This document shows, in pieces, positions 6,622 to 63,900 of a DNA stretch of 64,000 nucleotides. Below the pieces are notes generated by a model. The model saw only the letters and a program-made list of their open reading frames with translations. It was not told where the DNA came from and ran no database searches. The stretch's first letter is position 1. Every line of letters begins with the position of its first letter. Source of the stretch: a virus. Lineage: Duplodnaviria; Caudoviricetes. Made by a program: the position numbers and the translations under genes. The stretch is taken from positions 32,001-96,000 of IMG/VR virus record IMGVR_UViG_3300005077_000489; one strand, written 5' to 3'.

Positions 6622-6635
6622 TATGGAGGAGTGGT

Positions 6636-18941: not shown

Positions 18942-19991
18942 ATGAGAGGAAATGAATATTTCGCAGGATTATTTGATGGAGAGGGTACTGTCGGGGTTTA
19001 CGTTATTACGAATAGCAAAAAGTCTGAGAGTGGTAAAAAAAATTACTGGATGGCGAAGATGTCTATAGTAGGTACTTATAGACCCCAAATAGAAGCGGCG
19101 TACAACCATTTTAAAGTGGGTAGTTTAAGCACGCAAAAAAGGCAAGCATTACAGAAATTACCAAAGGGAAAAACAATAGACCCTAAATTATGTAGACAAG
19201 GCTGGAGATGGTCTGTTCAAGCAAAGAAAGATGTTGCAGAAGTAATAGAAAAAATACTACCTTATTTAATGGAGAAAAAAGAGCAAGCAGAAATAGTTTT
19301 AAAATTTTGTAAAGGTGAATTAGACGGAGAAATGGCAAGTAGATTATGTAAAGAGGCTAAGAGATTTGAATATAGTGCTGATTTAGGGGAGTCTCCTAGG
19401 AAATCTACAGGTTCTTGTTCTGAACACAATCCTTTAGCCAAATTAACTTATGAACAAGCACAAGAAATTAGACAGCGTGTTCATAATGGAGAAAAGCAGA
19501 TAAAGATAGCTAGAGAATTAGGTGTTAGTAAGACACAAATTAGTAGAATAGTAAATAATATTACATATGTTTATCCACCTATGTCTTACAATAAAGGTGA
19601 GAAGCCTATTCCAGATGTCTTACCGCCGCCGGAAAAGACAGCGGGTTCTGGAAGAGCAAAATTGACATATGAGCAGGCTCAGGAAATAAGATTAAGAGTT
19701 AAGCGGGGTGAAAGACAGTTTATGATTGCACATGAGTTAGGTATTACTAGAACGCAGGTTAGTAAAATAGTAAATAACCAAACTTATGTTAGTCCTAATT
19801 TTGAAATTATTGAACCTCCTGATAAGGGAGGCGTTAATATAGCGGCAAAATTAACTTATGAAGAAGCGGATATAGTTAGGCAAAGGGTAAAAAATGGAGA
19901 AAAAGTAAAAGACCTTGCAATGGAGTTAAATATGACTACCACGGCTATTTATAACTTAATAAACAGTAGAACATATATAAGGAAAGGATAA
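18942..19991 (+). CDS. LAGLIDADG endonuclease with three C-terminal HTH repeats
   Basis: YFAGLFDGEGTV; three AKLTYE(Q/E)A..(I/V)R.R...GE....(I/L)A.EL repeats. Confidence 0.8.
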   Translation: MRGNEYFAGLFDGEGTVGVYVITNSKKSESGKKNYWMAKMSIVGTYRPQIEAAYNHFKVGSLSTQKRQALQKLPKGKTIDPKLCRQGWRWSVQAKKDVAEVIEKILPYLMEKKEQAEIVLKFCKGELDGEMASRLCKEAKRFEYSADLGESPRKSTGSCSEHNPLAKLTYEQAQEIRQRVHNGEKQIKIARELGVSKTQISRIVNNITYVYPPMSYNKGEKPIPDVLPPPEKTAGSGRAKLTYEQAQEIRLRVKRGERQFMIAHELGITRTQVSKIVNNQTYVSPNFEIIEPPDKGGVNIAAKLTYEEADIVRQRVKNGEKVKDLAMELNMTTTAIYNLINSRTYIRKG

Positions 19992-31792: not shown

Positions 31793-32175
31793 AGATATTA
31801 ATTGTTGAAAATGATGTTATTGTGGGTAAGATATGGAGAAAGTGGCTATCTAGGTTACATGAAGTTAGAAGTGCTGAATCAGCAGCTACCGCTCTAGAGG
31901 CTATAGATGAGGAATTACCTGACTTGGTTATTTTAGATTTACGTCTTAATGGACCAAACCCCGCGTCATCTGGTCTTAGAGTATTTAATTATTTACGAGA
32001 GAAGGCAAATAACATTCCCGTCATATTTATTACAGGGTTAGAATATAATGTAGAATTATATCAAGAAGCGAAAAAGATTAGTGAGAATGATTCTGGTGCT
32101 GGAATAAACACGGAACTTGTTCGGAAGCCTATTTCTATACATAAGTTAACGGAATTAGTTGATAAGGTAGCGTAG
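31789..32175 (+). CDS. Single-domain response regulator (CheY-like receiver)
   Basis: MKILIVEND, LVILDLRL (phospho-Asp), FITG, VRKP. Confidence 0.9.
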   Translation: MKILIVENDVIVGKIWRKWLSRLHEVRSAESAATALEAIDEELPDLVILDLRLNGPNPASSGLRVFNYLREKANNIPVIFITGLEYNVELYQEAKKISENDSGAGINTELVRKPISIHKLTELVDKVA

Positions 32176-42902: not shown

Positions 42903-45900
42903 GTGGCAGAAGAATACACCTTTAATATAAAGTTAAAAATAGATGTGGATGATTCTAAGGTATATAAACTAAAAGAATTGTCTGACAAGACTAATGATGT
43001 ACTACGTAACATAAATATGTCCCATGTGAAGGGACTTGGCTCTAGTATGTCTTTTGGGACCAGTGATAAAGACATTCAAGTTTTTAATCGTATCAAACAG
43101 GAAGTACAGAACCTAGAGGGTTATATAGATAGATTAAAGTCTGATCGAATGTTTACTCCCGCCTATATTGATGATGCCACTAAAAAGTTTTCCAAAGATT
43201 ATGATAGAAAGCAACTCAAAGAAGATTTAAAAAAAGAAATGCAGATGGAGCGGGATAGGTTATACCACTCCATTACCCATGCTACAGACAGTATGAAACG
43301 TAGTTTAGAGCAGCAGAGAAAAGAATTTATCGACTTACATAATACCTTAAAGCAAATTAAAAAACCTACCGATATATCTACATTTTCTGGTGAGCGTGTA
43401 ACTCTCAGACCAGAAAGAAGTCTGAAGGAAATGACAGCCCCTGATATTTTTACTCGTGATCTGGAATTAATGATAAATAAATTACTCTTAAAACCGAAGG
43501 CAGAATTAGGGAAAGAAATATTAAAAGTAAAAGAATACATGGATGACGTCTATTCAGAGATTAATACTGCCTTAGATAAGGTGGGTTATGAGTCACATCG
43601 TAGGGCTCAAGAAGAGGTTGGTAGGCTCCGCTTGAAAATAGAGGGACTTGCTACCGCAGGGGATATAGACCAGATAACACGTAATGTAGAATCTTCATTA
43701 AAAAGCGGGGATTTATTAAACCAAGTTAAAAAAATGCGTGAAGAGATAGTGAAAGCATCCACCGAGTTTGCTAAGGAACTGGGTGATGAGACGGATAAAA
43801 CTAGAAAGTCCTTTGCTAATTTTCAACGTAGTATTATTTTTGCCTTTAACAAACCGCAGTTCTTTGACCCCGCTGGAGAACTGTTCAGGGATGTGCAGTC
43901 ACTCAGCCAACGTAAAGGAATTGGTTCCCCTTACGGCGGTCGTTACGTTGGTGCTCCTAGGATTAAGTTTGATGAGGGCGGAATAGCCAAATATGAACTA
44001 TTTGATGTAAAGGCATTGGCAAGAGAAACTGCTAAATTAATGTCAGTAGCCGGGTTAAAGCAAGCCTTGAAGGCTGACCTAGATAGTTCCCTGCAAGATG
44101 CCTTGAACAAATATTTGGATGCTAATAAAATTTCTAAGAAAATAGAAACACTAGTTTCTTATTCTATTAAAGACCTGCAAAAGATACAACTAGATTTGCT
44201 CCGCTTTGCCGAAAAAGAAGTGGCTAGGCGAATTGGTGATGAAGAAACCAAGAGGCGTATAGAAGTATTTAATAAATATTTAGAGAGTATAACAAAACAG
44301 GCACTAGTCCTCCCTTCTATCGCTAAAAGTTCGCGTGGTGCTTCTATTATAAGAGACCCCGAACGTGGAGAATATCTGACTCTCGGTAGATATCTAGAAA
44401 CTAAACCAGGTATTAATGAATTGGATGATAGATTTATCAGACCTTTGTTAGACTATGTTAAACGTATGAATTATCGTACACAAGATATTCCGTCGCAAGT
44501 GAAAAATATTCAACGTACTGTTAAGGATTTCTGGGTAAGATCCCGCCCACAAGAAGAGCATGGTGTTGGGGTTGGTATGGAGTTAGCCGCCAGAGAAATG
44601 GTCGGTAGGATGAAGACAGCTTTTGATACGGTTGGCTCCTTCCTGGAACAGACTAGAGGACCTAAGGCTAGAAGAGCATTAACCGGAATAGATGAACTTA
44701 AGCAGCAATTCATGGTCGATTATGAGAAAGCACTGCGAGAGGCTGTGCGTGCTACTCACGAACGTGTTGCTAAAGAAGAAATAGTTACCGGGGCTAAAAG
44801 ATTACCCCCTGATTTGGAATCTCGTTTTAGGGAAGCCTTGAATTCTTTACAAGGAAAGGGTCCTAGATACCAATTATTACCAGAGCAAGTTGTTGGTTTT
44901 CTAAGGAAGGAATCTGAGAAAGTAGCACGTCAGATAGAATCTTTACCCATTGATAAATTAGAAGATGAATTAAATCGTATTGGACAGAGAGAGAAGAATG
45001 TAGTAGGTGGTACCGATTATGATGCTAGAGCATGGCAACGTGTCCTAGAGGAATTCAGTAGATACCGAAACGTAGATTTTTACAATATGTTAAATCGTGC
45101 TGCTTCTTATTCGAAAGATAGTATAAATGAATTGGAGAAGATACGTAATAGTTTATCTTCAGCCGGTCGCTTAGGAAATGAATCTTATTTTCAAGAATTA
45201 TTGCAACAACAATTTAAGAAGGTTTTTGACCCTATAAAAGAGAAGGTACCTGAAGAGCACGAAGCCATGCAGAAGCATGAGGTCTACGGTCGCCATAAGG
45301 TAATAACAATCCAGCCAAAAATACCTGGAATAGATGCCGGGCCTAGTTCCTACGGTGTTCCTGTCGATTTACAAGCTCTCAGAAGATTTATTGTTCAGAG
45401 AAATCTTGACATGGAAGAACTCTTTGAGAAGGAATATCTGAGGGGTACTGAAGCAGCCATGCGTAAATTAGGTACAACTATTGAGCGTCTTGCTACGGTT
45501 GGATTAAACGAAGCGGCAGCCGCAGGTAAACGAGATTTTGGTGATAAATTCATGGAATCTTTTTTCAGGGGTAAGAGATTACAACCTTTTGCTTCTTATG
45601 ACCCTAGGGAGACCGAGGCTTTTGGTTATTCTATAAACCCAGCTCGCCCCACCGGGGCAGCATGGGACTCCTTGGCTGGTCCAGAGTTTAATGCTATACG
45701 TTCTCGCAAAGCTCATAAATTTATCCGTAGCGGAGAGTGGGGACCGTACGGGACTGGTTTAAATGTTACTACAGTTCTTAAAGATGTTTCTGCTGGTTAT
45801 GAAGATTTATATGAGATAGGTAAAAGGTTACAGGAATTAGCTACGTTTAAATTTAAAAAACTTGTGGTTCCTAACTTGAAAGGCACAGAGGAAGAATTAA

Positions 45901-48900
45901 AAAATAGCGTTGTAAAGTATCTGCAAGAGGTTGGTCATGATATTTTTGGTGCTCCAATTAAATCTAAAGAACTAGCTGATGAAACTTATATAAAGGATAT
46001 AGTTAAGAGATGGGCACAGTCTCCTCAGGGTCCTATAGAAGAAAATATTGTTGAATTAATAAATACCTATTTGGGTCATGAAGCACGTAAGATTTCTACC
46101 GGTCAAGTTCTTAAGGGTGTAGCCTCTACAGCCTTTACTAGATTCGGTACAGAAGTAGAGGAATCGGTCAGGGAAAAAGCTAAAAAAGGATTGTATCCAA
46201 AGATAAAATTTATGGATGTGGGTGAATTATCAGATGTTCCTAAATCATTTGAAGAATTGATATCTGAGTTATTGTTGGTTCGAAAAGATTTAGACCCAGC
46301 AAAAGTTTCTAAGGCTCTAGAGATGATAAAAGGAACTCAAAATATGATTATGATGTCTTCTGACCATTTAAAACAATTAAAAATTAGTCCTATAGAATAT
46401 GGTACTGGTAGAATAATGGGGGAGGATGCTCCGAGCCTAGAGGAGCGTCGTAATTTTGTTGGTAACTTACTTGGTATAAATTTGACCTCAAAAGAAGCTC
46501 TAAGGAGTGCAGGAGATATTACTGCTCAAGTTAAAATGTTAGAGCAAGATATGGAGAGAATAAGAAGGCTATATAAAGAATCTACTGGTGGAGATTTAAA
46601 TAAAGAGGTTCCAGTAGACCTACGGATACTAGCCTCCGGGATAGGGAAGAAGTCACGTATGATCGGGGGTAACTTAGCAGAGATTATCGCAAATAATATT
46701 ATAGGAAACCTACGTTCCAGACCTTTAGAAGGTGAGACGTTAATGGAACAGATACAAAGGTCTCCCCTTGCTAAGGTTCTTGTGGAGAACACCGCCTCTG
46801 GTCGCGAAGTTATGAAATTGGCAGAACTATATAAGGGGGCTTTAGGATTACGTGGGAAGTATGGCGAAGAGTTTATATATAAACAAAATGATGCATTAGA
46901 AAAAGCGGTTGCAGGAATGATGCATGTTATGATTATGAAAGAACCTAAAGGGTGGGTACCTAAAGGTGCGGCCGAATTAGAAGCTGGTTTGTCAAAGATG
47001 ACAATAGATCCGCATGGATGGTTTGGTCTTAAGAAATTGTTTGATCCACAAGGTGCGTTGACACGTGAATTTACCATGCGGGCTTTTCCTGAAGCACGGG
47101 AAGCTGGTGCTTTCTTATCGGCATTTCGTTCATTTGCTAAATTACGTGAAGAAGAGATGACCAGAGCAGTGAAGACGGGAAAAGTTAGAATGGTCGGTGA
47201 AAAGCAATTAGTTGATGAAGACAGAGAAGATTATATTGCTCCTCTTAAAAGAAAGGCGACGGTAGCCGATCTGTCTAGAACTATTTTTGATCCATTTAAA
47301 TACGGACCTTCTATGGCTTTGGAGTTACCGGAGCCATCCGAGGATATGAAACGTTTGATAGAGGAAGAGATTAAAGAAGGAATAAAAAAAGGTATACAAG
47401 TAATGCCGGTCAAACGTTTGGTTGAAATTCCAGAGATTAGTGCACGACAGTATGTGACTTCAGAGACCGGTGAAGTATTACCCTCTACGGTATCCAGGTA
47501 TCTCTCAGAACTGGTGGATGCCACAAGAAAGTATCATATATTAGGTAGCCGAACTAATGATATAAATAAATTAGATATGCAGCGAGAGTTCGTTGGGACC
47601 GCTATTGGAGACTTCTATAATAGGATACATCCTATCAGGGACTTGAGCGTAAAACTTGATTTGCTCAGTAAACTGGAAGAGCAGGTTTTTTCCTTAGTGG
47701 GAAGTAAACCTATGCCACAGTTTTCCGGGAAATCTTCTGTCATCGCTGACGCACAGGACCCGACTAAAGTATGGTTTCCTACTATGTACAGCCGCCTCGA
47801 CGACGAAACAAAGAAATCTTTAGAAGAGGATATGCGTAAAGGTATTTCTATAAAAGATGCTTATAATAAATATTTTAAGGAGTTGGAACAATCAGTTTCT
47901 AATATAAATTTCAGGGCTCGTTTTCTTCGCGACCTTATAACGGGACCTGTAATTTATACTAAAGGAAAAGAGGATATTGGGCGTGAAGTAAAAACAGATA
48001 TATCAGAGGGTAATGATCCCCGCTATCAAAATATTAACCTAGTCCAAGATAAGATGTTATCAGATATTATCACTAACTTCAAACAGTACGAAGCTGAAAC
48101 AGATGCCTACGGGAAAACTATCGGAATAAAGTCTCGTTCTTTATTGGACTTACAGTATAATGAAATAAGACGTAATCTAAAAGAATATTATGATGAATTA
48201 TCTAATATGATATTCGGTAGAGGTATCCTGTCTGATGTAGTTTTGAAGAAGAAGATACCTGCTCTCTACCTGACAGCTCAACAACGACCTTATGACCCTA
48301 GCGAAGCAATAAAATCTGCTATAGACAAGTTAAACAAATTCAAAACAGAGGTTCCCAATGCTGAAGAATTGAAGACGGACTTAGATAAGGCTCTTCGAGA
48401 TGTAGAAACTTTCAAAGTAACAAAACCATCCCAGTGGGTCCGTCCCGGAGAAGTTCGTATAGGCGAGAGAGACCTAAAGGAATTACAAAAAGCGGGAATG
48501 GCTACTCCTGAGTTACAAAAGAGTGTGGATAGTGTTTATGCCTTGATAAATAGGCAGCCTACTACAGATGAATTTAGTTACAAGGCGATGCGGCTTACAG
48601 TGGATGATGCTCTAAAAGACCTGTCTGGAATAGCAGTAGTTCCCGGGTTACCAATAGGCGACTATCCAGTTAGTTCTAAGATGGAAGAGGCTTACAAAGC
48701 GTTAGAGGATTTACGTAGCAAAAAAGTTAAGGCTATAGAAGAAGAACTTTCTAAGTCTAAAGGTAAAATGACTTCTACTGTCACTAAGTTGCAGAGGGAT
48801 ATAGATGAGATAGACCGAGCGTCCAAGGACTTGCGGCCTATGTACCATGAAGCCTCTTTGGGTTTAGATTATGACGGAGATATGATTTCTATTCATGCTG

Positions 48901-51900
48901 CTACTGTAAAAGAAGCAAATGAGGAATTGAAGAGAATTCATGATATGCAGATGAAAGAGTATGGAACCACTAGAAGATTTTTGCATGAACAACTTAGTTA
49001 TGTTCCAGAATCAAAACGTTCTATGGGTGCCAAAGGTACTGAATTATCCGATGAAGAAATTATGGCTGTAGAAAAAATGCGAAGAAGTGCCTCTCCTACA
49101 TGGCAAGAGATGGACATTGTGAGTGACATTTCTAAGCAAGCTAAGAAGAATTTGTTAGATATCCATGCTACTACTCTTCCCGAGATAGCAGAAGATTCAT
49201 TAAAGCACTTTGTACACAAGGTTGATATGGGACAAGGTTATGAGGCTTTTAACCGTATAGGTTTCTTGTATCGTGGTGCCACGGCTAAGGATTTGGGTAT
49301 TACCCCTAAATTACATGAAACTTATAATTTATTATTAGGAGAGTTTTTGCGTGATACAATCCAAAAAGTCATAGGTGGAAAACACGGTTCGGCTGGTTCG
49401 GATATGAGTCCTATAGTGCAACAAGCTTTTTTCACTGGAAATATAGACGCGGTAGTAGATGCCCTGGACAAAGGGGATGGCGGTTGGGGAAGTTTTAAAG
49501 GTCAATCTGGTAGTAATCAACCACTATTTCAAGAGATAGAAGATAATTTAAGAGAATATCGTTTAAGATATCTGAAGCCAATGTCTAGAGATCAAGTAAA
49601 GAAGGAAGCCGAGTCCTATGGTATTTCCACATTTATGAAAGGTAGGGAACAACTAATAGAAGAGATAGTAGGTAAAACCTCTTTCAGAGCGATGTTTGAG
49701 AATGTATTTGACCAAGTAAGACGTATGGCAGTGGCTAATATAAAAGAATTATATCGTACAGGATTGGCAGGAGATTCTTCCTTATCTAAAAAGGGCTCCA
49801 TGGGCCTCGCCAAATTATTGGCTGGTACTGAGGGGTTCGAAGGAGAGACACTACAGACCTTAGGATTAAGAACTAAATTTAAATTTAATGAAGGAGACTT
49901 TGAGGCATTTGTAGACAAACAAGATGTTACTGATAAGATAATGGGAGTGTTGAAGGATAAATTAGGTAATGTCTCCAAACAGGAGATGGCTTTTCAAATA
50001 GCCGCAGCTGGAGAAGGGATTGCCAAGGTTCTACGTGGAGAACCCGGGAAACTAAAGACAGAGATAATAGAGCCAGGGTTTAGTACCGCTGGATTATATC
50101 GCGGTTTACAACCCATGTATAAACTGAAATCTTCCGGCGGGGCGGAGATGGCTGTTAGTTCTTATTCTAAACGCTCCGAAGGAGAAAATCAGTATACCCC
50201 CGGTGGTCCTGCCCTTTCTTATGCAGAAGTATTAGATTATGTATTGCGTAATAAGGCAGGAAAAAATATAGAAGTAGGTCCTTCTTTAGGTACCTTCACT
50301 AACCCGAGAGAGCAAAAAGCCTATGAATTTGTAAGTCCTGCTATTCAAGCCTACGAGGATTTTGAAAAAGCATATAATAAGATTATGTTGGTAATGGACA
50401 AGAACCTGTATGCCTTGGAGGGATTGCTCGCACAAGTACAGACTTTTGGTAAGGAAACCGCGGGTTTTAAAGGTGAATCTGCCAGAGCTGGTCGTTACGT
50501 AATGTATGATAAGGATACGCAACAAGTCTTCCTGGATTCTGCTGTAAAGTCTGCTTTTGAGGATAATAAGCGTGCTCTTTCTTTGGCTAGAAATGCTGGT
50601 GAGGCTAAAGAGGCGGAAGATAAACTTTTTGATACTGTTAGAAGAGTAAATGAATTATTAAAAAGGGGTGCAGCTTTAAAGTTTATAGATATTGATGAAA
50701 GCAGGAGAGCAGACAACCTCAGAAGTACCATAGATAAACTAGCTGACCCTTCTTCTAGATGGTCATTAAAAGTAGATAGTCTACTAGAGAGAATGGTCTA
50801 TGATAAGAAAGAATTCGGGACATTAATACGTAAGTGGTTAGCAGATGTCGGTCGGGGTGATTTATTAGATAGGAGTAATGTGGAGATAACAGCCGAGTTA
50901 AGGAAGCACAAGGGTATAAGGAAGGAAGCTCTAGAAGAAGCAGCATCTTATATAATTTCTGGTAAGGGTAATATAGCAATTGGTTTGAGACCCTTGATTA
51001 GAGATGCACGTTCCGTGGATATAAAGGAAGAGATATCCAAGGGTCTTATAGGGAAGATAAGATCGGAGGACTTCTCAAAATCTTTCTCACCCTTATTTAT
51101 GGAAAGTTGGAAAGAAGCTGTCATGCGTAATGCACAAACATTAAGTGCTTCGGACTGGAGAAGTATTTATAAGGCTCATCCAGTGTTACGAGATATGCAG
51201 GCTCCTGGTACTTCGTCATATGAAGACGTTATTAAACAGTTACGTTCCGAGGGTATTTATGGTGGTAGTCGTGGGGTCACCCATTTTATAAATAATATAT
51301 TGAAAGAAAGACAAGGACAAATTTTAGAGCACCTTGGCGTGGAGAAACCTGAAGATTGGGAAACCCTTAGACTAAGCCAAGTGGAAAATAAAATGAAATC
51401 CGGTATATTAGAGGCGGCGGAATCTACAAGGTGGCCATTCAGACCCCGTGCCGGTGGAGGGGTATATTTAGAGGATATATTGGACAAACCGGTTCACAAA
51501 GTTAGAGAAGATGTGGAAAACATATTTGATAGTGCTTTTGACCTATCCCCGGAAGACTGGAAACAAATATTTAACTTTGATGAAAAGGCACAAAAAATAG
51601 CGATGAATGCTGAAGAGCCCCTGAAGGCTTTATATGAAGCCGGTATGTACGGTGAAAATCGTGGATACACAAGATACATTAATATGATATTTAAGAAACG
51701 TATGGAGCATATTCTAAATGAATTAGGGCAGGAAGCCCCTGATTTCTATACCATGCGTTTCCAAAAATCTAAACAAGAGTTTCTTAGTTCTCTCGAAGAA
51801 GCAGCATTGGATAATTTATTAAAAGGAACTCCGTCAACCGGAGGACCTTTTGGTGGTAAGCGGTTTACTCCCGGAGAGGCTTTTGGGGAGCGGGCACCAG

Positions 51901-54900
51901 AGAACATAAGGAGAGCATCTAGAGGTTTCGTTCCTGCTGATTACCCTCATATTAAACCTATTTATGATTTTCCTAAATTCTTAGATACAGAATCTTCGGT
52001 ACAATACAAAAGTCATGGTGACCAAGTAAAAATGAGTGCTGTACCTCTAAGGTGGGGTAATATAGAAATAGGTTATGGTACTAAAAACAAACCATTAGAT
52101 CCAGCTACAGCTAATGCTAGATATAGGCCTTTTATAGAAGCTACCCAGGACCTAGTCCCAGTAATGAAAGATTGGGTAAAAGAGAACAAGCATCGCATAG
52201 ATTTATATGGTGAGTTTGGCGGGTTAAAAGATAAATTAGTATGGTTTGATGCTAAGGTAGCAAACAAAACTTTGAGTCCTGATGATTTTAAAAAGTTAGC
52301 TGAAGAGTTAAATCTGAAAACTACTGAAGAATTATATAGAGGACCAGTAACGAAAGAGATAGTTGACAAAGTATATCGTCAAGTCACTCCCTTCAGAAAA
52401 TTAGAAGAAGGCGTTGTGGCTAAAGGATTGGAGATTGATGAAAGAACAGGCTTCCCTAGAATGGCTAAGTTTAAGACTAAGCCTTATCTAGTGGGGGAAG
52501 AGACGCGTTATCCTTGGCAAGACTGGGGTAGTGCAGAAAGGAAAATAGAGGAGAGGCATAAGAAACTTATGGAGAGAGCATTTTCTCCATTTGATAACAT
52601 TGAAGAAGGGATAGAACAGGACCCTACAAGATCTTTTACACCCACGGAAGCCCAGCGTAGAGAAGGCTTATATCCAGAAAATTGGCCGGTTGTAGAAACT
52701 ACCAAAAAACGTGTTGAAGAGTATCTTAAAGGTTTAGATGATAAATTTTATCAGTCTGCCGAGAGAGCGAAAGAATTTCCTAAAGGTACTAAGTTCTTAG
52801 TACAAGCCCCGGGTGTAGAGCCCATTCCTTCCTATGCTAAGGATGCTGTGGTTATTTCTAAAGAAGAATTAAGGAAAACCATCTTTGGTAAAGGGATGCC
52901 AGACTTACCTTATGACCCTGTTCTTGTATTAAATTCTAGAAGACAGGTTCCTAGGTACCCTGAAGCAATTCCTATTTCTAAGGAACGCGGTTTTATGTTT
53001 CCTGGCGAGGCTAAAGAGGGTGATGTAGGTAGGTTTGTCATACACCAGCATGATGCCTTAAGGGCGGGTCCCCACCATGACATGCGTATTGAGTTAGGTG
53101 GTCAATTACAGTCTTGGGCAGTTCCAGAATTTATTCCGGAAAAGATGGGTGAACGTAGGTTAGCCATAGGTCCTACGGCACACCATGCCATTGACTACTA
53201 TCAGAAGGGAGATTACGATATTCCCAAAGGTTTTTATGGTGCCGGTCATATGTCAACATTTGATACGGGTAAAGCTACTGTAGAAAGTGTAAAAGAAGGT
53301 TATGTTACTGTACGATTAGAGGGAGTAAAAGGACTAGCTGATGGTACTTATTCTATCATAAAATATGAACCTAAAGGAGAAGATACAAGAAAAGGACAGT
53401 GGTTAGTGTCTAAGGTTAGACCATTGTCAGAAAGAGACCCAGAAAGAGCAAAGAAATTATACGGTTTTAGTCCATCCATAGAGTTAGATGACGAATTGGG
53501 GGCAGGAGAGGGTAGGTATGGACAGGGTAATATAAGGTTATTTACCCCTGGTAATAGAGCAGAGATGCGGGCTTTTATGAATGTATTACAACATGAAAAA
53601 GGACACGCAGCAATAGATTTTGCAGCACCTAATATTGCTAGGGATATAATGGCTGGAAAACAATTTCCTGGTGTTGATACCAAGAAACTGCAAAGTTATT
53701 ATATGCAGAAGTATGGGGACCGCGGAGATGATGAGGAGGCAGCAGCGAATGCATTAGAAGAGGCTATTGCAGGCGGGCTACGTACAGACGAAGACCAAGA
53801 AATATTAGACGAAATTAGCAAACTGCAAGATGTCATAGGTGAAAAAGCCGGAATGGCATTTGCAGGTACATCACCACAGAACGAACTTTCCTATATTAGA
53901 AAACTATTCTCACCAGTACAACAACCGTACACAGTTTATACAGATGCAGGCTCTAGAGGTAACCCCGGTCCTGGGGGTGCTGGTGCCGTAGTATTTGACC
54001 CACAAGGTAAGAAGGTTTCAGAACTTAGTAGATACTTAGGAGAAACCACAAGTATGGCTGCAGAATATCAAGGGCTTATTATGGGATTAGAAGAAGCCCT
54101 TAAACATTCTGCCAAAAACATTCAACTTAAGTCTGATTCACAAGTAATGGTGGGGCAGATGAGAGAGGAGTTTAGAGTTAAGAATGAACAAATAAAAGAA
54201 TTAAAAAGACAAGCAGACTTACTTAAAGCACAATTCGAAGGTTTTAATATAGACTATATTCCCAGAGAACAAAATAAATTAGCAGATAAATTGGCTAACA
54301 GGGCTATGGACTCATATCTTAAGTCATATTCGCCTGCCGAAGATGACGTAGACCGTTTTGGTAGTCCTATTATTTATGATTATAATAAATTGACAAGTAG
54401 CCCTAATTGGCTTCCCCGCGGTATGACTGCTAAGGCTGTTTCCGCTGCTGTAAATGGACAATTTATAGGTGCGGCATCTTATTCAACTGCCTCTCCTGAA
54501 TACACAGGGTTTGGGGAATTATCTATAAAACCGGAATATAGGCGTAGTAGTAGAGTTGCTGGTAATTTGATGGAGAAGGTAATAATAGATTTAATCAATA
54601 GTGGTAACTTCAAACATACACGTCCTCTCACCCCAGTCGCTGATACTCCAGAAGCCATCTCTTTTTGGGAGAGTATAATAAAAAGAACACAGAAGCCTTC
54701 AAGAAATATAAAAGAGGCATTCTTAGCAAATAATGTGACTCCTGATGATCTTTCCATGGTTGCTGGTAGATTACAGGCTGAAATAGACATAACCAAGGCA
54801 TCTAAGTTTACTGATGTAATAAAGAGGATCATTGAAGAACCTCATAATTTAGGGGAAGAACTTTCTAAACTGACAGAGACTAATCAAGCAAAAGTAATTA

Positions 54901-57900
54901 GAGCTACCCAGGCAGTGTTGGCTAAAACAAATGATGCCTCTTATCCAAAGATAGGTATTAAACCTACTGCTTTTTCTGAGGGATTGGATTTTAAGTCTAA
55001 ACTCCGCTCTGAAATAACATCATTATATAATTACGGTAAAGAAGGTGCCAAACTATTTTTTGGGTCTTCTGGTTCTGGTTCTTCCATAACTGAATTTACA
55101 AAGAATATAGCAAGGGGTATATGGGATGACCTAGGTAGATTGGGAAAATTCTCATTAGGTACAATGCGCGGTTTGAGGGCGTATGCACCTGTAGAAGATT
55201 TAGTTCGTAGTGGTGAGATAAAGATTGATGACACCCCATTTAGAGCCCGGGGGCTAACGTCCGAGAGAGTCAGAAACTATTTAGGTAGAGGATATGCTGT
55301 TGGTATGGGTGGGGGCGGTAATATATATATGCCTCCTGATATTATACAATCATATCAGAATGCCACTGGCGGACTTAAACAACAGTATGGTCAATCTATA
55401 ATGAAAACTTATTTTCATGAAAAAAGGCATCTTGATATCGATGCTGCTCCAGAGAAAATAAAGGAAAAGTGGAGACAACTTGCATCTGACAAGAATACTG
55501 ATATAGGTAAATTAGTTAGTAGCTTTATAAATGAGGCTATGCTTAGCACTTCCAGGGACGTATATAAGAAACAATTTGAGGATGCTCAAAAGAAATATGG
55601 AGAAAATATAGGTTCCGATTTCTTAAATTCTTTTGCTGCTAGGTGGGAAGCCTTACAAGAGATAATTGCTGGTCATCCGGAGATGCGTTCTGCTAGTAGT
55701 AATCAACAGTTAGTACAAAAAATTCGCAGTGATTTCTATGGAGATGTAAATAAGCCTATACCTGGATTTGGTCCCAGTGCTAGTGCCTTTTCTCCTAATT
55801 TAACAGATTATAAAAATTTCAAGAACATTAAAAAGGGCTACGAAGAAGAGTCGGATACTGGACTATTACATAAGAAAAAGGTAGCTTTAAAATTTGGGAT
55901 TCCGCCATTAAAAGGTCTGTTGGGAGAAGATATCGATATTTCGGAATCTCTACAATATTTAATGCATCCGGCTATGAGGGAAAGAAGACTTATGGGACTC
56001 CCCCAAAGAATGATAGATTCAAGAAATCCTTACTTAGCTGGGATGTTACGTAAAGGTTTTGGTGCTGGTGCTGGCTTATCCCTAGAAGGAGAACTAGGAG
56101 TAGGTCCTTACAAAGTAGAATTAGGTGGTGTAGGCTTTGGCAGATATGGTAAGAAAGATGAGGAATTTTTTGCTGATAAACCCAGTGAGATAATAGGACT
56201 TTCTAGTTTGGAACCCGTCAAACGTCCAATTGATTACGTGGGTTTGAGCCCCGGTGCCGAACACGGTTTGTTGGCCGCCCTTAGGGCAAATACTAACGCT
56301 CTACTACGTTCATCTTTTATTACGAAGGATATGCCCGTTGGGTTACTTCCTACTATTATGCAGGACATAACTAAAGCGTACAGGGTTCCTGCTACTGATG
56401 AGACCCTAGGCAGTGCTTTTAGAAAATTTTTTGGCGGCACTTACGACCTTGCAAAGGGTACTATGAAAGGTGCTATAGGTCTTCCTTATACATTAATAAA
56501 ATCTCCTTTGGATATATTTAAATCCGGTAAGGATACAGATTCCAGGTTTTGGACTGGTGTTGGTCAACAATTCAATGGTATTTCTGCGGGATTATCAGAA
56601 CTTTCTACATACAAGAGTGGTGCTTTCTTGGATACAGATTTAAAAAGTGCCTATTCAACCAAATCAAAATCTATTTATGATATAAAGAATATTGTAGATA
56701 TGGAGTACGATAAATTAGTAAGAAAGTTAGAATTTGGTTTGGCAGTGATGGAACCCGCAGATTTAAAGCGTAATATATCTGATGTATTTACGGCTTATTC
56801 GGACACGATGGATAATATGTTTAAAAACCCGTCTAAAGCCTTAGCCGAGGAGGCTGCTAAACAAAAAGCAATACTGGAATCAGTATTGGGAAACCAATGG
56901 GAGACTCCCCCAGCGACACAGCGATTAATACGTGGTGGTGCAACGCTGGGTCATGGGGTGTCTTCTATTTATAATCGATTACTGAAAACTTTGGAAGAAA
57001 TAGGTTATGCTACGGGTGGTGTCGGAAAGGGAGTAGGCTATTTAGCAACACACCCTAAAGACATATTACCCGGAATTATGTCTTCTATCCGAGGACTATT
57101 ACCAGGGAAGGATATTACTGGTGTCGGGTTGTTGGGTGAAACTTCCAGACAATTAGAGCAAATCTATGGTACCGGGATGTTAAGAACTTCTGATGTAGTA
57201 AAGTTAGCCGGGTACGGTGTATCACCAGAACAAAAAGTTGGGGGGTTACTCTCGCGTGCTTCAAAATATCAACCTGTGACAGCCGCGGACCGTGCTATGA
57301 GAGAAGTTCTTGGTCTCAGGGAAACCGGTGCAATTGTGGGAGATATCACTAATACAAAAGGAATCTTGGGTGCTCTAGGGCATGTTGTGGTCAAACCCAT
57401 ATCTGCTATTGGTGAAACTATGACAGATATGGGTAAGGCGTTTGGTTCCTTTAATTTAGTAGAGATGGTAAAAGCTCCTCTAATCGGTCTCTTAAAGCTA
57501 GCCCCAGTGATCGGTCATACCGTTGCGGGTGTTCAAGAATTTAGGGAAGAAGTAGAGAAGGGTGCTTCCCCTTACACATCATTTGTTAGCGAAGTCGGAG
57601 AACAAATCATAGAGGGAATTACTATTGCATTAGGTGCCGCCGCAGGTACTAGAGTTGGTCGTCCTGCAGCCGCCGGGTTAGCTAGTATAGGTGGTAGGGG
57701 TCCTATGGCAGCCGCTAAATATTTACCAATTGCCACTGGTATAATAGGTAGTATTCTAGGAGGAATTGGTGGTGGTAGAATAGGGGAGTCTTTTGAAAAA
57801 GGTATGTTCTCTATGGTGGGACAGACCTCTCCTAAGTCTGTAGCACGTTCTATTTGGGAGCAAGAACGTGATAAGCGATCTCTAGAGGAAGAGGGTCTAG

Positions 57901-60900
57901 ATAAAATACTACCGGATTACCTGGATGAATCCAAAAAAGAAGAATTAGCCAATATGCAAAAATGGTTGGTCCGTGGTGGCGTAGTTGGCGGACTATATGG
58001 TGGTATGAAGGTTCCTCTTCAAGGTGGAACACTTTCACGTTTAGTCTCTATGGTCGCGGGTCCTACTCTAGGTTATCTCGGTGCCAAAAAATTAGGAGAT
58101 GTCACGATGGGTCGTGCTTCAGAGAAGGCTAGAGAAGACTATATGGAAAAGACTCTTGGATTTCGATCTTTTTCTCCATTATCTTCACAAGAGAAATGGG
58201 ATATTCCTAGGGAAATACGCGGGGTTACGTCTGAGAAACTCAAAGGAAAAACCTTAGATGAAATAATTTCTACTTTCAAAGAGTTACAATCTGAAACGTT
58301 TAGTGGTAGCAACTTAGATAAGCAGAAACTGTTGACATCACAGAAGGCTGTTACCCAGTTTATGTCCGAGATCTATCTTAGCAGAATTGAAGAGTTGAGA
58401 GATCAACTGAATGTCGCTGCTAAAAGTGGTAATCAGAATTTAATGGCAAAACTCCGAGCAGAGATTGATAGGTATATAGTTTTTTATATAGGGAATGTAC
58501 TCAAGTCTTCTACTGGTGCACACGCAGCCGCCGATGCTTTTAGGGTGCGGTCTATCGGTGGTTTTGTAGGTTCAGAGGACTATGAAGCACGTTCTACAGG
58601 TCGTCCCCAATCTTTCGATGAGGTTATAAGTCTCGATAAATTCTTGGAGAGGGGTCTTAGCGGTGTATCTAGGAAGGCTGTAAATCTATTAAGGAATTTA
58701 TCTGATACGGGTGCTTCTCCAAGGTCTATATATCAAGAAATAATGCCAGGAATTCTGAAGTCTTCTACGAATATCCCAAGAGACGTTACGGCTGTGCATA
58801 CATATTTGAAATCTGTAGTTCATGAACTAGGACAAACCCCAGATGTTAATATAGACCAGTACCGTTATTGGAAGTCATTGGAAGAATATTTCCGGGCCAC
58901 CGCAAAGCAATACAGAGGAAGTAGTCGGTTCGACTTTGGAGATCTACGTTCTGCTGCTCCGATAACACCAGTTGGTTTACGACCGGAGGACCAGGAGACC
59001 TTTAATGCAAAAACTGTAGATTACTATAAAAAAATGTTGCAGGCCAACCCAATGTTTAAGGAGGGTGCTACTGTACCACTAGAACTTAAAGTTACGGATG
59101 AGGCTGGTAATGCTTTAAAAAATATAAGAGTTGACTTAACAAAAACAAAACACGCGGCGGACGGCGTTTCCATGTCCATAACAGATATGAATAAAGTTAT
59201 GGCACAGAAAAACACTCTGTTTGGTGCAGTAGAACTAACTTCTAGATTTATTTTGGCGGGAGCAACTGTGGGTGGGTTAGTTAATGAACTAAGGACTATG
59301 GCTTCCACTATTGCTCAAGTAGAGTCTGGTATGATGGAACTAAGAAAGGTTATGGAACCCTCTATAACCAACTTTGACGAGATACGTAACTCTGCTCTTA
59401 ATATGGCTAAAGAAATGGGTGTTGGTATTAATGATGTCATACAATCTATGGTAGTTTTCGGGCAACAGGGTGATACACAAGCACAAGTAATAGAGAAAGC
59501 GAGAACATCTGTTATGGCTGCCGCTATAACTGATATGAAAGCTGCAGAAGTCACTGAATATCTTACATCTGCGGTAAAGCAATATGGAGAAGAGATAAAG
59601 GAAACACAACGTTTTCTGGATTCTTGGATAAAGGTTGACGTACAGCATGCCATAACGGCTACTGAATTATCCAAAGCAATGCTGCGTGTTGGTTCCGCTG
59701 CTAAAGAAGCTGGAGTCGGTTTCCATGAATTAAATGGTATTGTGACTGGTATTGGCTCTGTTACTAGACAAACCGGTAGAGAAGTTGGTACTGCTCTACG
59801 TTTTATTTTTAGGAATCTCCAAACTACTCAAGTTAAAAACTATTTGCGTAATATACTAAATATTGATACGTTGTTACCGAGCGGTTCTATAAAACCGGCT
59901 ATGAAGATATTTGATGAATTACAGGCAAAATGGCAGAATTTCTCTGATGCTCAAAGGATGCATGTTGCACAATTGGTTTCCGGTGCTAGACATTATAATG
60001 CTTTTCTAGCAATGATGAATAACTACTCAGAAGTATTAACTGCTACACAAGATTCTATACACTCTGAAGGTTATGCTCAAGCTCGTTTGAATATGCAAAT
60101 GGATACGCTAACTAAGAAACTAGCACAAGTCAGAGCGGCTTCAGAAAGATTATATGTTGACTTTGGTAAACTAGCCCTGGGTCCAATGAAACTCGTAGCG
60201 GATGCCACAACTTCTATGATTACTGCTTTTACTCTAATCCCTGATACTGTAAAACAAGCTATATTAGCATTAGGTACTTTTGCCGCTTTTTCCGGTAAAA
60301 TAGAAAGTGTTATTTCCGGTTTGCAAAATTTTGGGGTGGCTAGCGGTATGTCAGATACCTTTTCTAATTTTATGTCTTTTGCTACCTCCCCAATTTCTTC
60401 AGTAATGAAAGCGTTCTCTTCTGTTCAGGGGGTCTCTGGGTTATCAGAGGTAACAACTACATTAGGAAAGATGGCATTCATTGGTATCTCTGCTGGTAGA
60501 TCTTTTAATAGTTTGTTCAGCAGTATAGGCAAAGGCGCAGGAATTGCCCTTGGTTCTGTGTCACTACTCGCTGCTGCAGTTGGAGCTCTGAGTGATTCAC
60601 ACACAGGAATGTTTAAATTGGCTGGTGCTTTCGGGCTTATAGGAGCTTCTGCTCTTATTAGCAGCGGTATTATAGGGTCCCTAAGCGGCTCCACTACAGG
60701 TTTTATTGGTTCCTTAGCACCTCTGGCTGTAATTGCTACTGTTATCTATAAAAACTGGGATAAGTTATCAGACGTTTTTGGCGGAGTAGGAAATAGTATA
60801 GAACGTTTACAGAAACAGACTGAAGGTATAGGGAGTATCACTAGCAAGCGTTTAGAAATTAGTGAAATAACTACAATATTTGGTAAGGCGAACTTATTAG

Positions 60901-63900
60901 GGAGAGGTCTCAGGGAAGCCAGAGTATCATTATCATCTTCCCAAGGCTTAGCAGAGGAACGCGACAGAGTCTTAGGAAGTATGGGCGAAGAGAGTTCTTA
61001 TAAGTCTTTAGTGTCCAGACAGATAGAATTCAATGATTTACAGAGCAAGGCTCTTAATAAAAGTATAGAATTATTACCCCAATTAGCCGATGGTTATGAT
61101 GCCTTTGGTAATGCCATAATGAATACAAATATAAATGCCAGAATCCTCCTGGAGACTATGGATGACCAATTGCGTGTAGCACAAGACATGGAAAAAGTTG
61201 ACTTAGCTAAGTTAATGACAGAAAAATTATTTCCTGTCGATTCGGTAGGGAAAACAATAAGAGATAGTTTACGTTCTATTTTGAGTATAATTCCTAGTGC
61301 GGGAGAACAATGGGCGGAAGCATTATTCCCTTCCTCTGCCTTTGAGAAACAGCAGCGTTTACTAACAAAGATGGGTGGGCAGAGAGAAATGGCTTCTCTA
61401 TATGGTAATATACCGATGCCACCCTTTATGTCTAATTCTCTAAAACAAATGCATCGGGAATTAACAAAAGTAAATTCCGAATTAGATGTGGAACTTAAGA
61501 AAATAGGAGATAGATTACTTTCCGTAAGCAGGGAGACTTCCCCCAAACAATTCCTAGATATGTTGGCACAACCGGAGTTCGATAAATATTTAGAAGTGTC
61601 TGGTGGTAGAAATATGCATATTCAAAGGCAATTAGCTGATGAATTCTTTGGTGGAAATGTAGGAGAATTGCAACGTGCATTACTACCTACTACCAGTGAG
61701 CCAAGAGCACTATGGAGACGCCGCGAGTTTGGTATCACTGGTGGCGGTATAGCGGATGCTTTGGGATTACCTAGTTCTTATAGAGTTAAATCTCCAGTAA
61801 GAGACCCGTTTGGTAGTGCTTACAGGGAGCTATCCAGTCCTACAAGATATATGTTAGAACAGTTCAATCCACAAATAGTTTCTATTGGTCAGTGGTTAAA
61901 TGATGGATATAATGCTTTAGGGCAAACTGTTACGGAGTCTTTTATAGGGGCACTAAAAACAGCCTTCAAAGCCCTTGATGTTACTGAACGAATCTCTAGA
62001 GAAGTCGGGGTAACATTATCAATGATAGGAGAACAAGGTGGATTACGACAAACATTTGTTTTGATTGGTAAAGATATTCAAGCGATAGCACTTACTATAA
62101 AAGAGTCCTTTCTCAGAAGTATTGATGATTTGGGGGCAATGGTTTCTCGCGGTGCCAGAGCAATAGCAGGGGACGAAATAGCTAATGCATTTAATAAGTG
62201 GGTAGAAGAAGCAACCAAGAATACAAAAATTGCCATAGACTCATGGATAATATGGTCTAAATCTGCAGGACAAGCAATACAACGCTCTTCTTTTGGGAGA
62301 GAATATAGTAATATCACCGCAGGTGGTAATCTGGGAGACATATATTCCAGGGCTAGTACTAAGGGTATGTTGGGAGATGTATATGCTGGTTTTGGAAATG
62401 TACGAACTGCTATTAGTGACCAGTGGTGGACCGGGAAAACATTTCCTATACAGGGTTATAGACCACCAGAATATAATTGGTGGCGTAGTGGGTATGAAAG
62501 GCGTATAGGTATAAATAAACCTGAACAAGTTTTTAGTGTAGATGTAGCATCTCTATTTACCAAGGGTTTAGGTTCTGACTTCTTGTCTACTATTCTTACC
62601 TCAATAAGCCCGTCACTTAATTTGCTTATTCGATCTAGGTATCAAGCAACTCCGCAAGAAACATATGCTAGGGAGCAAGCGGAGATGGCACGCGGAGAAG
62701 CACCGGGTTACTACACTCCTCCTAGAGAGATGTACCTTAGAAGAGACTTGAATGCTCTTGGAGTAACCGCTGTCTTAGATGAAATAAGTGTTGCATTAAC
62801 ATCCTTCTCTACTATGTGGAGAGACTACGGCGATATAATGCGGCAAGAGTACGGTTTTATACCTGAAGGACTAAAGACATTAAAGAATATGTGGCTACTT
62901 GGTGTCAAAGAGACTGGTTATAGTGCATATGAGACAACTACACAAGAGGTTCTTCCTAATATGATGAAGATATATCCTCCACTTCATCTTACATATAATT
63001 TGATGAAGCCAATGAAAGAATTCGTAGAGTATTTGACCTTTATTCCTGCAGCTATAAAAACTGTGGCTGGTGAAGTAGTAAAAGCTGGTGGAGTATATAT
63101 GCAGGGTAGAAAAGAAGTCGGAATAGAACTAGAACCAATATTTTCTATCTTAGAGAAATATCTTGGAGGAGTTGCTGCCCCCGCTGGGTTCCTCTCTGTA
63201 GACATAATGCGACTCTTGTCCAGGATATTTGTTGATTATCCGAAGGATGAGATTACTAAAAGAATAGTGGAGAAGGAAATTGCACCAGGGGAATTTGGAC
63301 CTAGGAAATCTTTCGGTCAGCTAAGTTTCAGAGAATTATTTACATATTTAGTTACAGGAGTTCGACCCTCTGCTCCTGGTACTGTTCCTACTGTAGTAAC
63401 TCCTGGTGTACGTGCTCCTACACCTGCCGAAAGGGCGGAAGAGACGGCAAGGAGACAAGCAATAACAGATGAGAATTGGAGAAGGCGAAGAGACCGCGGT
63501 GAAAGAATAGTTGACGATTGGATGGAAAGTTGGAGAAATGCTACTGTGAGTACCAGTAGGGCACTTGCTTCTTGGTCTGATATAGTTATGGCTTTCTCCA
63601 ATGATGTAGGAATTTCTATAAAAGATGTGTCTGGTATGGCGAGAGAATACATATCGCAAGTTCAGGGTAATCAAACTAAATATACCAAACAAGTACGTTC
63701 TTTTGTAGAGCAAGCATATGACAATTTATTGAATACTTCTATTAAAGCATATCAGAACGTACAAACGGCACCTATTAGAGAAATGTATGATAAAATAGTA
63801 GGACAAATTTCTGACAGGATTTCTACCGCTACAGAAGGTATAGACACTACTGCTCTGAGAGAGGGTATAAGTAAGTATATGAATAAGGCGGTAGAAGGGG

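Follow-up and report, generated by a model that had tools for sequence, protein, structure and literature searches.

Tail tape measures are usually seen as rulers and channel formers, and each virion holds few copies of them. To our knowledge, gp96 of the Thermus phage P23-45 is the sole studied case in which an enzyme fused to a tape measure was shown in virions. An antibody detects its N-terminal RNA polymerase in virions, and this polymerase has been proposed to act at the tape-measure pore, transcribing during DNA entry; gp96 also has a metallopeptidase and membrane segments (PMC10770324). Here, we describe a predicted RNA ligase and a predicted LigD-type 3'-phosphoesterase (PE) that are encoded within one giant open reading frame (ORF) of a tailed virus (Caudoviricetes), the IMG/VR record IMGVR_UViG_3300005077_000489. 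The DNA analyzed, called the window from here on, is a stretch of 64,000 bp and corresponds to bases 32001-96000 of the linear record, which has 211,229 bp and is estimated to be 86% complete. Like gp96, the encoded protein appears to be a giant tape measure with enzymes in its N-terminal part, and a DYDGD motif is found in the part that corresponds to the polymerase of gp96. Unlike gp96, which has 5,002 amino acids (aa) and for which no ligase, phosphoesterase, or RNase H is mentioned (PMC10770324), it has 13,616 aa and at least five further cargo domains, and the two proteins have no detectable sequence similarity.

A second described system is bacterial LigD (PE + LIG + POL), in which the polymerase adds ribonucleotides, the PE trims them, and the ligase seals. 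The LigD ligase prefers a nick with a 3'-ribonucleotide, and the PE trims ribonucleotide tracts (PMC8656161). The protein described here resembles LigD in having a homologous PE with the six core residues and a predicted ATP-dependent ligase in the same polypeptide. Healing before sealing would be common to both, and an Rnl2-type ligase, too, would be suited by a preference for 3' ends with ribonucleotides. It differs from LigD in that its ligase belongs to PF09414 and not to family A with an OB domain, Prim-Pol and Ku are missing, an ASCH-like domain precedes the PE, and the whole array lies in a phage tail protein. The PE itself also departs from that of LigD, with Ala-His in place of Glu82-Asp83, Glu or Gln in place of Lys66, and His in place of Gln40.

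Phage RNA ligases are the third point of comparison. With T4 Rnl2 and the Rnl2/REL1/Rnl5 clade, the ligase domain shares the KxHG motif, motifs III, IIIa, IV, and V in that order, the Pfam family, and the best structural match. Unlike the members of that clade, it has its motifs I to V within only about 155 aa, has neither the Rnl2 C-terminal domain nor the Rnl5 N-terminal domain, and lies inside a structural protein. The idea of a phage RNA ligase assisted by an enzyme that heals 3' ends recalls T4 Pnkp with Rnl1 and the RNA repair systems of jumbo phages (PMC7824862). In contrast to T4 Pnkp and Rnl1, the module here has no kinase, its healing enzyme is a LigD-type PE and not a HAD, 2H, or calcineurin-like enzyme, and its ligase is Rnl2-like and not Rnl1-like. 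The T4 and jumbo-phage systems are expressed after infection, whereas the module here would be particle-borne. A survey of jumbo-phage RNA repair lists RtcB, Rnl1, Rnl2, kinases, 2H, cRec, and HAD and does not mention LigD or PE (PMC7824862). No description of a ligase/ASCH-like/LigD-PE array in a tape measure was found in the literature searched. The array combines features of known kinds, namely enzyme cargo fused to a tape measure, LigD-style healing and sealing, and a phage Rnl2, and it sits in the largest class of phage tape measures (proteins of 12,000-15,000 residues).

The giant open frame and its relatives

The ligase and the PE, at 51920-53420 of the window, are domains of a single frame of 13,616 aa and not separate genes. 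In the whole record, this frame occupies bases 74903-115753 and extends 19.8 kb beyond the window end. An earlier note on this DNA, made from the sequence alone, had described the two enzymes as a pair. Both were recovered here, and its domain calls stood, as did the catalytic lysine, a substituted tetrad in the PE, and the missing OB domain. The note had overlooked the domain that lies between the two enzymes and the longer array of cargo to which they belong. The main features, in window coordinates, are the following.

42903..64000, + strand: N-terminal 7,032 codons of the predicted tape-measure ORF, with a GTG start at 42903 and open past the window end
51840..51911, + strand: Gly/Pro-rich linker GGPFGG...EAFG..AP.NI (aa 2980-3003), directly before the ligase
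51960..52547, + strand: predicted Rnl2-family RNA-ligase nucleotidyltransferase domain (aa 3020-3215)
52008..52010, + strand: codon of Lys3036, the predicted AMP-accepting lysine (motif I, KSHG)
52674..52952, + strand: predicted ASCH/PUA-like small beta-barrel (aa 3258-3350), putatively nucleic-acid binding
53025..53432, + strand: predicted LigD-type manganese 3'-phosphoesterase (aa 3375-3510)
59388..59972, + strand: predicted tape-measure core, PF10145 PhageMin_Tail (aa 5496-5690), 90.8 bits against a cut-off of 33.2

The family considered here has five members, listed below with their identity to the window protein in the ligase-PE region. A search of 1.8 billion representative proteins added, besides ordinary PE proteins, only five short fragments of the same family.

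G000, the window record (IMG/VR, 211 kb): ORF of 13,616 aa, reference
G001 (IMG/VR, 545 kb): open frame of 14,712 aa, 74% identity
G002 (IMG/VR, 256 kb, 97% complete): open frame of 12,316 aa, 62% identity
L010 (82-kb metagenome contig): locus open throughout, 56% identity, ligase part only
P0152 (Logan contig): fragment of 6,667 aa, collinear with the window protein from residue 1, 64% identity

The order ligase, linker domain, PE, and RNase H is the same in 5/5 members. Over the first 7,000 residues, few parts are conserved as well as the ligase and the PE. Amino-acid identity between the window protein and two relatives lies at 0.64-0.71 in the ligase and at 0.62-0.85 in the PE, much like in the putative polymerase core. 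Much of the remainder has 0.1-0.5, and values of 0.0-0.5 are seen at aa 3800-4000 and across the greater part of the ruler. Nonsynonymous divergence (dN) from the closest relative is 0.09 for the PE, 0.11 for the ASCH-like domain, and 0.31 for the ligase, values that are among the lowest in the cargo. Synonymous divergence was saturated; therefore, the ratio of the two could not be quantified, and dN alone is informative.

The cargo array is modular. P0152 has an insertion of about 800 aa (aa 3072-3876) with two PolyA_pol head domains (PF01743; CCA/poly(A)-type; 58 and 44 bits). This cassette stands directly before the ligase and is introduced by GGPWGG...EAFG..AP.NI, the same element that precedes the ligase in the window protein. 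Elsewhere in the family, PolyA_pol is encoded by a separate gene in G001, gives a weak sub-threshold match in G002, and is not found in the window's record.

The ligase domain

PF09414 (RNA_ligase) matches aa 3033-3176 with 29.8 bits in a long query and 35.4 bits when the domain is taken alone, against a cut-off of 27. The family is also above its cut-off in 3/3 full relatives scanned (best E 6.7e-12) and reaches a sub-threshold 20.3 bits in P0152. Two PHROG RNA-ligase families match the domain weakly. A language-model look-up, which serves as a lead only, grouped the ligase with small PF09414 proteins of viruses. No scorable relatives came from a word-indexed search that had the ligase alignment as its query. 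The motifs were aligned by eye to the T4 Rnl2 sequence from the T4 record, as follows.

Motif I: K3036-S-H3038-G here, K35-I-H37-G in T4 Rnl2
Motif III: E3104 in LYGEFGG here, E99 in VFGEFAG in T4 Rnl2
Motif IIIa: F3115-D3116 here, F119-D120 in T4 Rnl2
Motif IV: E3169...K3174 in EGVVAK here, E204...K209 in T4 Rnl2
Motif V: K3189 and K3191 here, K225 and K227 in T4 Rnl2

In addition, K3061/K3063 occupy the place of R55 of T4 Rnl2. The motif residues are invariant among the relatives, and Lys3036 is conserved in every relative that covers motif I. Judged by its sequence, the ligase lacks none of the residues that one would expect in an enzyme that adenylylates its lysine and seals nicks. The match to PF09414 and the residues shared with T4 Rnl2 agree with the earlier note, which had read ligase motifs I, III, IIIa, IV, and V from the translation and had placed the catalytic lysine at 52008, where the Lys3036 codon lies. 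The note had also seen no OB domain. None was found between the ligase and the PE, and a predicted ASCH/PUA-like domain is there instead. T4 Rnl2 needs its C-terminal domain (PF18043) for full nick sealing. No Pfam match was found after motif V, where a helix and the ASCH-like domain are located instead.

An AlphaFold model of the ligase, based on a six-row alignment, was poor overall, with a mean predicted local distance difference test score (pLDDT) of 56 and core blocks at 70-89. When this model was compared with the PDB in Foldseek, the top 27 matches were all RNA ligases. In VIA-align, T4 Rnl2 (2hvr) was matched with Z 9.1 and a root-mean-square deviation (rmsd) of 2.5 over 99 residues, and the top 31 matches were ligases. 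Z was 8.1-8.8 for the Naegleria RNA ligase (NgrRnl), 7.4 for TbREL1, and about 5 for DNA ligases. On these matches, the model has the nucleotidyltransferase fold of the covalent nucleotidyltransferase superfamily. A reading of the nucleotidyltransferase as a capping enzyme was tried and was rejected, given that there is no PF01331 match and that RNA ligases top both structure searches.

The phosphoesterase domain

PF13298 (LigD_N) matches the PE with 59.7 bits against a cut-off of 31.1. With phmmer, the domain matches solved PE structures, namely 3p43 (E 2.4e-16), 3p4h (5e-15), and 3n9b (5.8e-13), as well as 2lj6 and 5dmp (to E 2e-10). Its predicted fold, an eight-strand beta-barrel, gave Z 12.0 with 3p43 (rmsd 3.2, 117 residues), 11.4 with 3p4h, and 9.9 with 3n9b in VIA-align, and the top 7 Foldseek matches are all PE. 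The pLDDT of this part of the model is only 50-72. Taken together, the ligase and the PE identifications, made from sequence, were confirmed as both well above chance.

H3383, H3391, D3393, R3395, H3428, and Y3432 correspond to H42, H48, D50, R52, H84, and Y88 of Pseudomonas LigD and are invariant in seven sequences. These six residues are needed for both activities of the Pseudomonas LigD PE (PMC3300020). The PE chemistry is probably intact, with the metal and phosphate ligands kept. These results support the H-x-H-D-x-R and H-x3-Y residues reported previously for this DNA, and the same is true of the change of Glu to Ala in a TAHH segment. TAHH takes the place of VEDH, with A3426 for Glu82 and H3427 for Asp83, and is invariant in the clade. 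Among the approximately 90 closest PE relatives in which the tetrad could be read, VEDH was found in 44, TEDH in 36, and TAHH in 0. In the Pseudomonas PE, Glu82 is required for the 3'-phosphatase and not for ribonucleoside removal (PMC3300020; PMC8656161). The 3'-phosphatase of the phage domain would, by analogy, be weak if the Pseudomonas E82A result transfers. As a natural Glu82 to Ala and Asp83 to His variant, the domain could be useful for dissecting PE specificity.

Other peripheral positions of the PE were also compared. Lys66, which influences the diesterase, is replaced by Glu or Gln; Arg76 is kept as R3419; and Gln40 is replaced by His3381. The two studies of the Pseudomonas enzyme disagree on the role of Gln40, and no inference was drawn from it (PMC3300020; PMC8656161). 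Upstream, an invariant LNxR[RK]xxPxYPEA segment was tentatively aligned by eye to KRDxxxTxEP of LigD, with E21 kept, R14 mostly kept, and D15 lost. A mapping of R14, D15, and E21 onto KERGF was rejected because the better-conserved LNxR[RK]xxPxYPEA fits better.

The PE was also searched for among phages. With the PE alone as the tblastn query, 50,697 deposited phage genomes gave no match up to an E of 1, and megablast and tblastn searches of the same 50,697 records with the window, the ligase-PE pair, and the polymerase-like part gave no match. No PHROG family matched the PE. Among its 135 closest relatives, 51 carry DNA_ligase_A_M (family A, ATP-dependent), 32 carry the LigD Prim-Pol, and 9 have a weak PF09414 match. 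The locus would provide a phage context for a LigD PE, joined here with an RNA-type ligase and an ASCH-like domain.

The domain between the ligase and the phosphoesterase

The block at aa 3258-3350 is confident in the AlphaFold model (pLDDT 64-89). VIA-align matched the whole domain to YqfB (9kyf; Z 9.9, rmsd 2.4, 87 of about 92 residues) and PH0355 (Z 9.0), and further matches were an Enterococcus ASCH protein (3iuw; Z 8.7) and Zymomonas ASCH (Z 7.5-7.8). No Pfam or PHROG family matched it. We predict an ASCH/PUA-like domain here, a call made at the level of the fold. It occupies the place that an OB or C-terminal domain has in other ligases.

Tape-measure identity and carriage in the virion

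In addition to the PF10145 core, 14 PHROG tape-measure families match aa ~5400-6850, the best being phrog_4211 (E 1.3e-60). A hydrophobic Gly/Ala-rich segment at aa 5800-5900 follows the core. Upstream of the giant ORF are genes for the large terminase, the portal, a weak match to a major head protein, and tail or virion proteins, and all genes in the window share one orientation. By its core homology, the Gly/Ala segment, and its position in the tail block, the 13,616-aa protein reads as a phage tail tape measure. Because the core starts at aa ~5400, the ligase and the PE sit in an N-terminal extension of about 5,400 residues.

From the P23-45 precedent and the tape-measure homology, we infer that the cargo forms part of the tail or virion and, at infection, exits immediately before the DNA. 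By this analogy, the virus probably injects a nucleic-acid end-repair kit along with its DNA. If the cargo is delivered, phages would be able to bring in enzymes for nucleic-acid repair that work while no phage gene is yet expressed. Genome establishment, or the struggle against host nucleases, would thereby gain a further layer not described so far.

Other cargo in the same protein

The giant protein has further predicted domains and motifs on both sides of the ligase-PE region.

48867..48881, + strand: DYDGD motif (aa 1989-1993) of a putative two-barrel RNA polymerase, invariant in three relatives
52581..52589, + strand: F-S-P tripeptide (aa 3227-3229) at the border between the ligase and the next domain, a possible processing site whose position is kept in relatives
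53466..53474, + strand: F-S-P tripeptide (aa 3522-3524) after the PE, a [FY]SP border motif
53592..53606, + strand: HEKGH (HExxH) zincin-like motif (aa 3564-3568), no family match
53925..54305, + strand: predicted RNase HI domain (aa 3675-3801), matching RVT_3 (84.3 bits), RNase_H (46.9 bits), and phrog_531

The RNase HI domain starts 165 aa after the PE and has an intact DEDD set, with D3681, E3721, D3745, and D3795 all present. In the upstream part, NRQPT and D[YF]DGD are invariant and about 105 residues apart (window 48549-48881), and RNA_pol_Rpb1_2 weakly matches at DFDGD in P0152 (E 0.0068). The polymerase-like part showed no similarity to P23-45 gp96 in hhalign or a sequence search, and the ESM Atlas gave no usable match. 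On these motifs, the upstream part is likely an RNA polymerase.

The tripeptide [FY]-S-P occurs 11 times in the giant ORF against 2.4 expected. It is found at cargo-domain borders at aa 2728, 3227, 3522, 3669, 3809, 4296, and 5090, and these borders are conserved in relatives. It may be a polyprotein processing code. If cleavage there is real, the ASCH-like domain would be released together with the PE as a single product of about 295 aa. A second HExxH motif, HEKRH at aa 4172 (window 55416-55430), was also seen. Both HExxH motifs are followed by a similar ..ID.AAP segment, and neither has a Pfam or PHROG match. The two motifs could be processing peptidases.

Two other stretches were examined. 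At aa 4554-4631 (window 56562-56795), there is a sub-threshold match to PF09249, the second domain of tRNA nucleotidyltransferase (E 0.016-0.036), a possible trace of a divergent nucleotidyltransferase in the window protein itself. The stretch after the RNase H domain, aa ~3810-4300 (window 54330-55800), is the least conserved part of the cargo, with an identity of 0.15-0.32 to G001 and about 0 to G002, and it has no Pfam or PHROG match.

Possible functions of the array

The reading that we tentatively favor is that the cargo trims and seals ribonucleotide-ended 3' ends on the phage's entering DNA or on its first transcripts. We regard it as possible, and as the likeliest of the readings weighed here. 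The PE would first trim 3' ends bearing ribonucleotides or a 3'-phosphate to leave a clean 3'-OH. The ligase would next adenylylate itself on Lys3036 and pass the AMP to a 5'-phosphate, and finally it would seal a duplex nick whose 3'-OH side is ribose. The substrates would be ribonucleotide-ended nicks, gaps, and ends on the single entering phage chromosome or on the first RNA-DNA hybrids formed on it. The phage's own entering chromosome would be the likeliest substrate because only a few tape-measure molecules enter the cell. Such a cycle would follow bacterial LigD, except that the ligase is of the RNA type. T4 Rnl2 can close nicks whose 3'-OH strand is RNA, whether the template is RNA or DNA. 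The parts of the cargo would converge on RNA 3' ends and RNA-DNA hybrids: the ligase, the ASCH-like domain, the PE, RNase HI, and the poly(A)/CCA-type transferases that one relative has. In its known biology, the PE serves the repair of DNA ends with ribonucleotides, which would fit this reading. The trimming and sealing of ribonucleotide-ended 3' ends is also favored by the lack of matches in the 86%-complete record to PF01068 (family-A DNA ligase), PF01653 (NAD-dependent DNA ligase), and PF02735 (Ku). Prim-Pol had no match in the giant ORF.

Several points weigh against this reading. Nicks, gaps, or ribonucleotides in the virion DNA are assumed. For the ligase, phmmer and a three-sequence profile found nothing relevant among PDB sequences, and hhalign of the ligase profile with T4 Rnl2 was not significant (probability 0.3), though motifs III and IIIa were superposed. 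Confidence in the ligase model was low (pLDDT 56). The PE residues that tune specificity (Glu82, Asp83, Lys66, and Gln40) are altered, and the LigD activity that survives is not predictable from the sequence. The likely polymerase upstream is identified by motifs only. Folded enzymes are not obviously able to fit the tail tube. Finally, the cargo may never reach the particle if cleavage of the polyprotein precedes assembly.

The strongest alternative is an injected RNA-repair kit that would restore host tRNA or mRNA after cleavage by abortive-infection ribonucleases, ahead of phage gene expression, and we consider it rather unlikely. The ligase itself would suit such a role, as it belongs to an RNA-ligase family, has the Rnl2-type KxHG, and has no OB domain, and the ASCH/PUA-like superfamily has RNA-binding members. 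However, Rnl2-type enzymes seal duplex nicks and not breaks in anticodon loops. Ends cut by ribonucleases also need a 5'-kinase, and the giant protein would have no P-loop 5'-kinase because no Walker A motif was found in it. A stand-alone P-loop kinase of 182 aa (AAA_33) is encoded at bases 9995-10543 of the record (minus strand). It is weakly similar to the polynucleotide kinase family phrog_505 (E 1.6e-6) and has homologues in G001, but it is generic, is encoded separately from the tape measure, and has no counterpart in G002, which is 97% complete. The two PolyA_pol/CCA-type domains right before the ligase in P0152 would fit RNA repair. It is also the case that jumbo phages often pair RNA ligases with end-healing enzymes and nucleotidyltransferases (PMC7824862). 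On the other hand, Glu82, which the Pseudomonas 3'-phosphatase needs, is Ala throughout the clade. The few injected molecules would be unlikely to restore the cellular tRNA pool, and ARAGORN found no tRNA genes in the 211-kb record.

A second alternative is that the module heals and joins DNA ends, serving as a Ku-independent stand-in for LigD that circularizes the chromosome or reseals restriction breaks. This we judge to be unlikely. The sole established biology of the PE is non-homologous end joining (PMC8656161). A role in DNA joining would also agree with the DNA_ligase_A_M domain in 51/135 of the closest PE relatives, with the lack of any other detected DNA ligase in the 86%-complete record, and with cargo that, by the P23-45 precedent, would precede the DNA into the cell. 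The ligase, however, belongs to an RNA-ligase family and has neither an OB domain nor another DNA-ligase C-terminal domain, and there is no Ku. The linear record has no end repeats and is uninformative on the genome ends.

A wider reading takes in the front half of the tape measure. It would be a polyprotein, cut at [FY]-S-P, that would enter before the DNA and rebuild the LigD logic from mostly unrelated parts. The two-barrel RNA polymerase, or the poly(A)/CCA-type transferases in one relative, would add ribonucleotides where the incoming chromosome has breaks, gaps, or ends, the PE would trim them, the Rnl2-type ligase would seal the ribo-ended nick, and the co-delivered RNase HI would later mark the patch for replacement. 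The result would be a Ku-independent, virion-borne repair or closure by RNA patches. We regard this extended scheme as quite unlikely.

The cargo could also process the phage's first transcripts, by maturing, releasing, or tailing the RNAs of a co-delivered polymerase. The poxvirus core, to which the particle would then be similar, carries its own RNA-processing enzymes. All the cargo enzymes would act on RNA 3' ends or RNA-DNA hybrids, the putative polymerase lies in the same chain, and the low copy number would suit a task in cis. This explanation is nevertheless very improbable in our view, since no known bacterial or phage transcript requires ligation or PE trimming, the polymerase is recognized by motifs only, and PolyA_pol is in the giant ORF of 1/5 members, plus the weak match in G002.

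That the domains are not injected, and either work while particles are assembled in the producer cell or persist as structural remnants with no activity, would be in line with a virion presence deduced from homology only and with the proteolysis that [FY]SP at the borders and the two HExxH motifs suggest, which could remove the cargo before assembly, but the catalytic residues are all invariant across members at 56-74% identity in the region, dN is among the lowest in the cargo, and the N-terminal cargo of P23-45 was found in virions, all of which make this explanation highly doubtful.

Neighboring genes

Some other genes of the record were noted in passing. Downstream of the tape measure, there are further very long ORFs of 4,741, 3,141, 2,187, and 1,892 aa. 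A hybrid sensor kinase of 953 aa is encoded among the virion genes (window 32175-35036, + strand), with receiver, PAS (2-3 copies), GAF, HisKA, and HATPase domains by Pfam and a PHROG "kinase" annotation. Homing-type endonuclease genes, HNH-like and LAGLIDADG-like, are scattered among the structural genes at 6636-7943 and 18942-19991 of the window and at 4198-5154 of L003.

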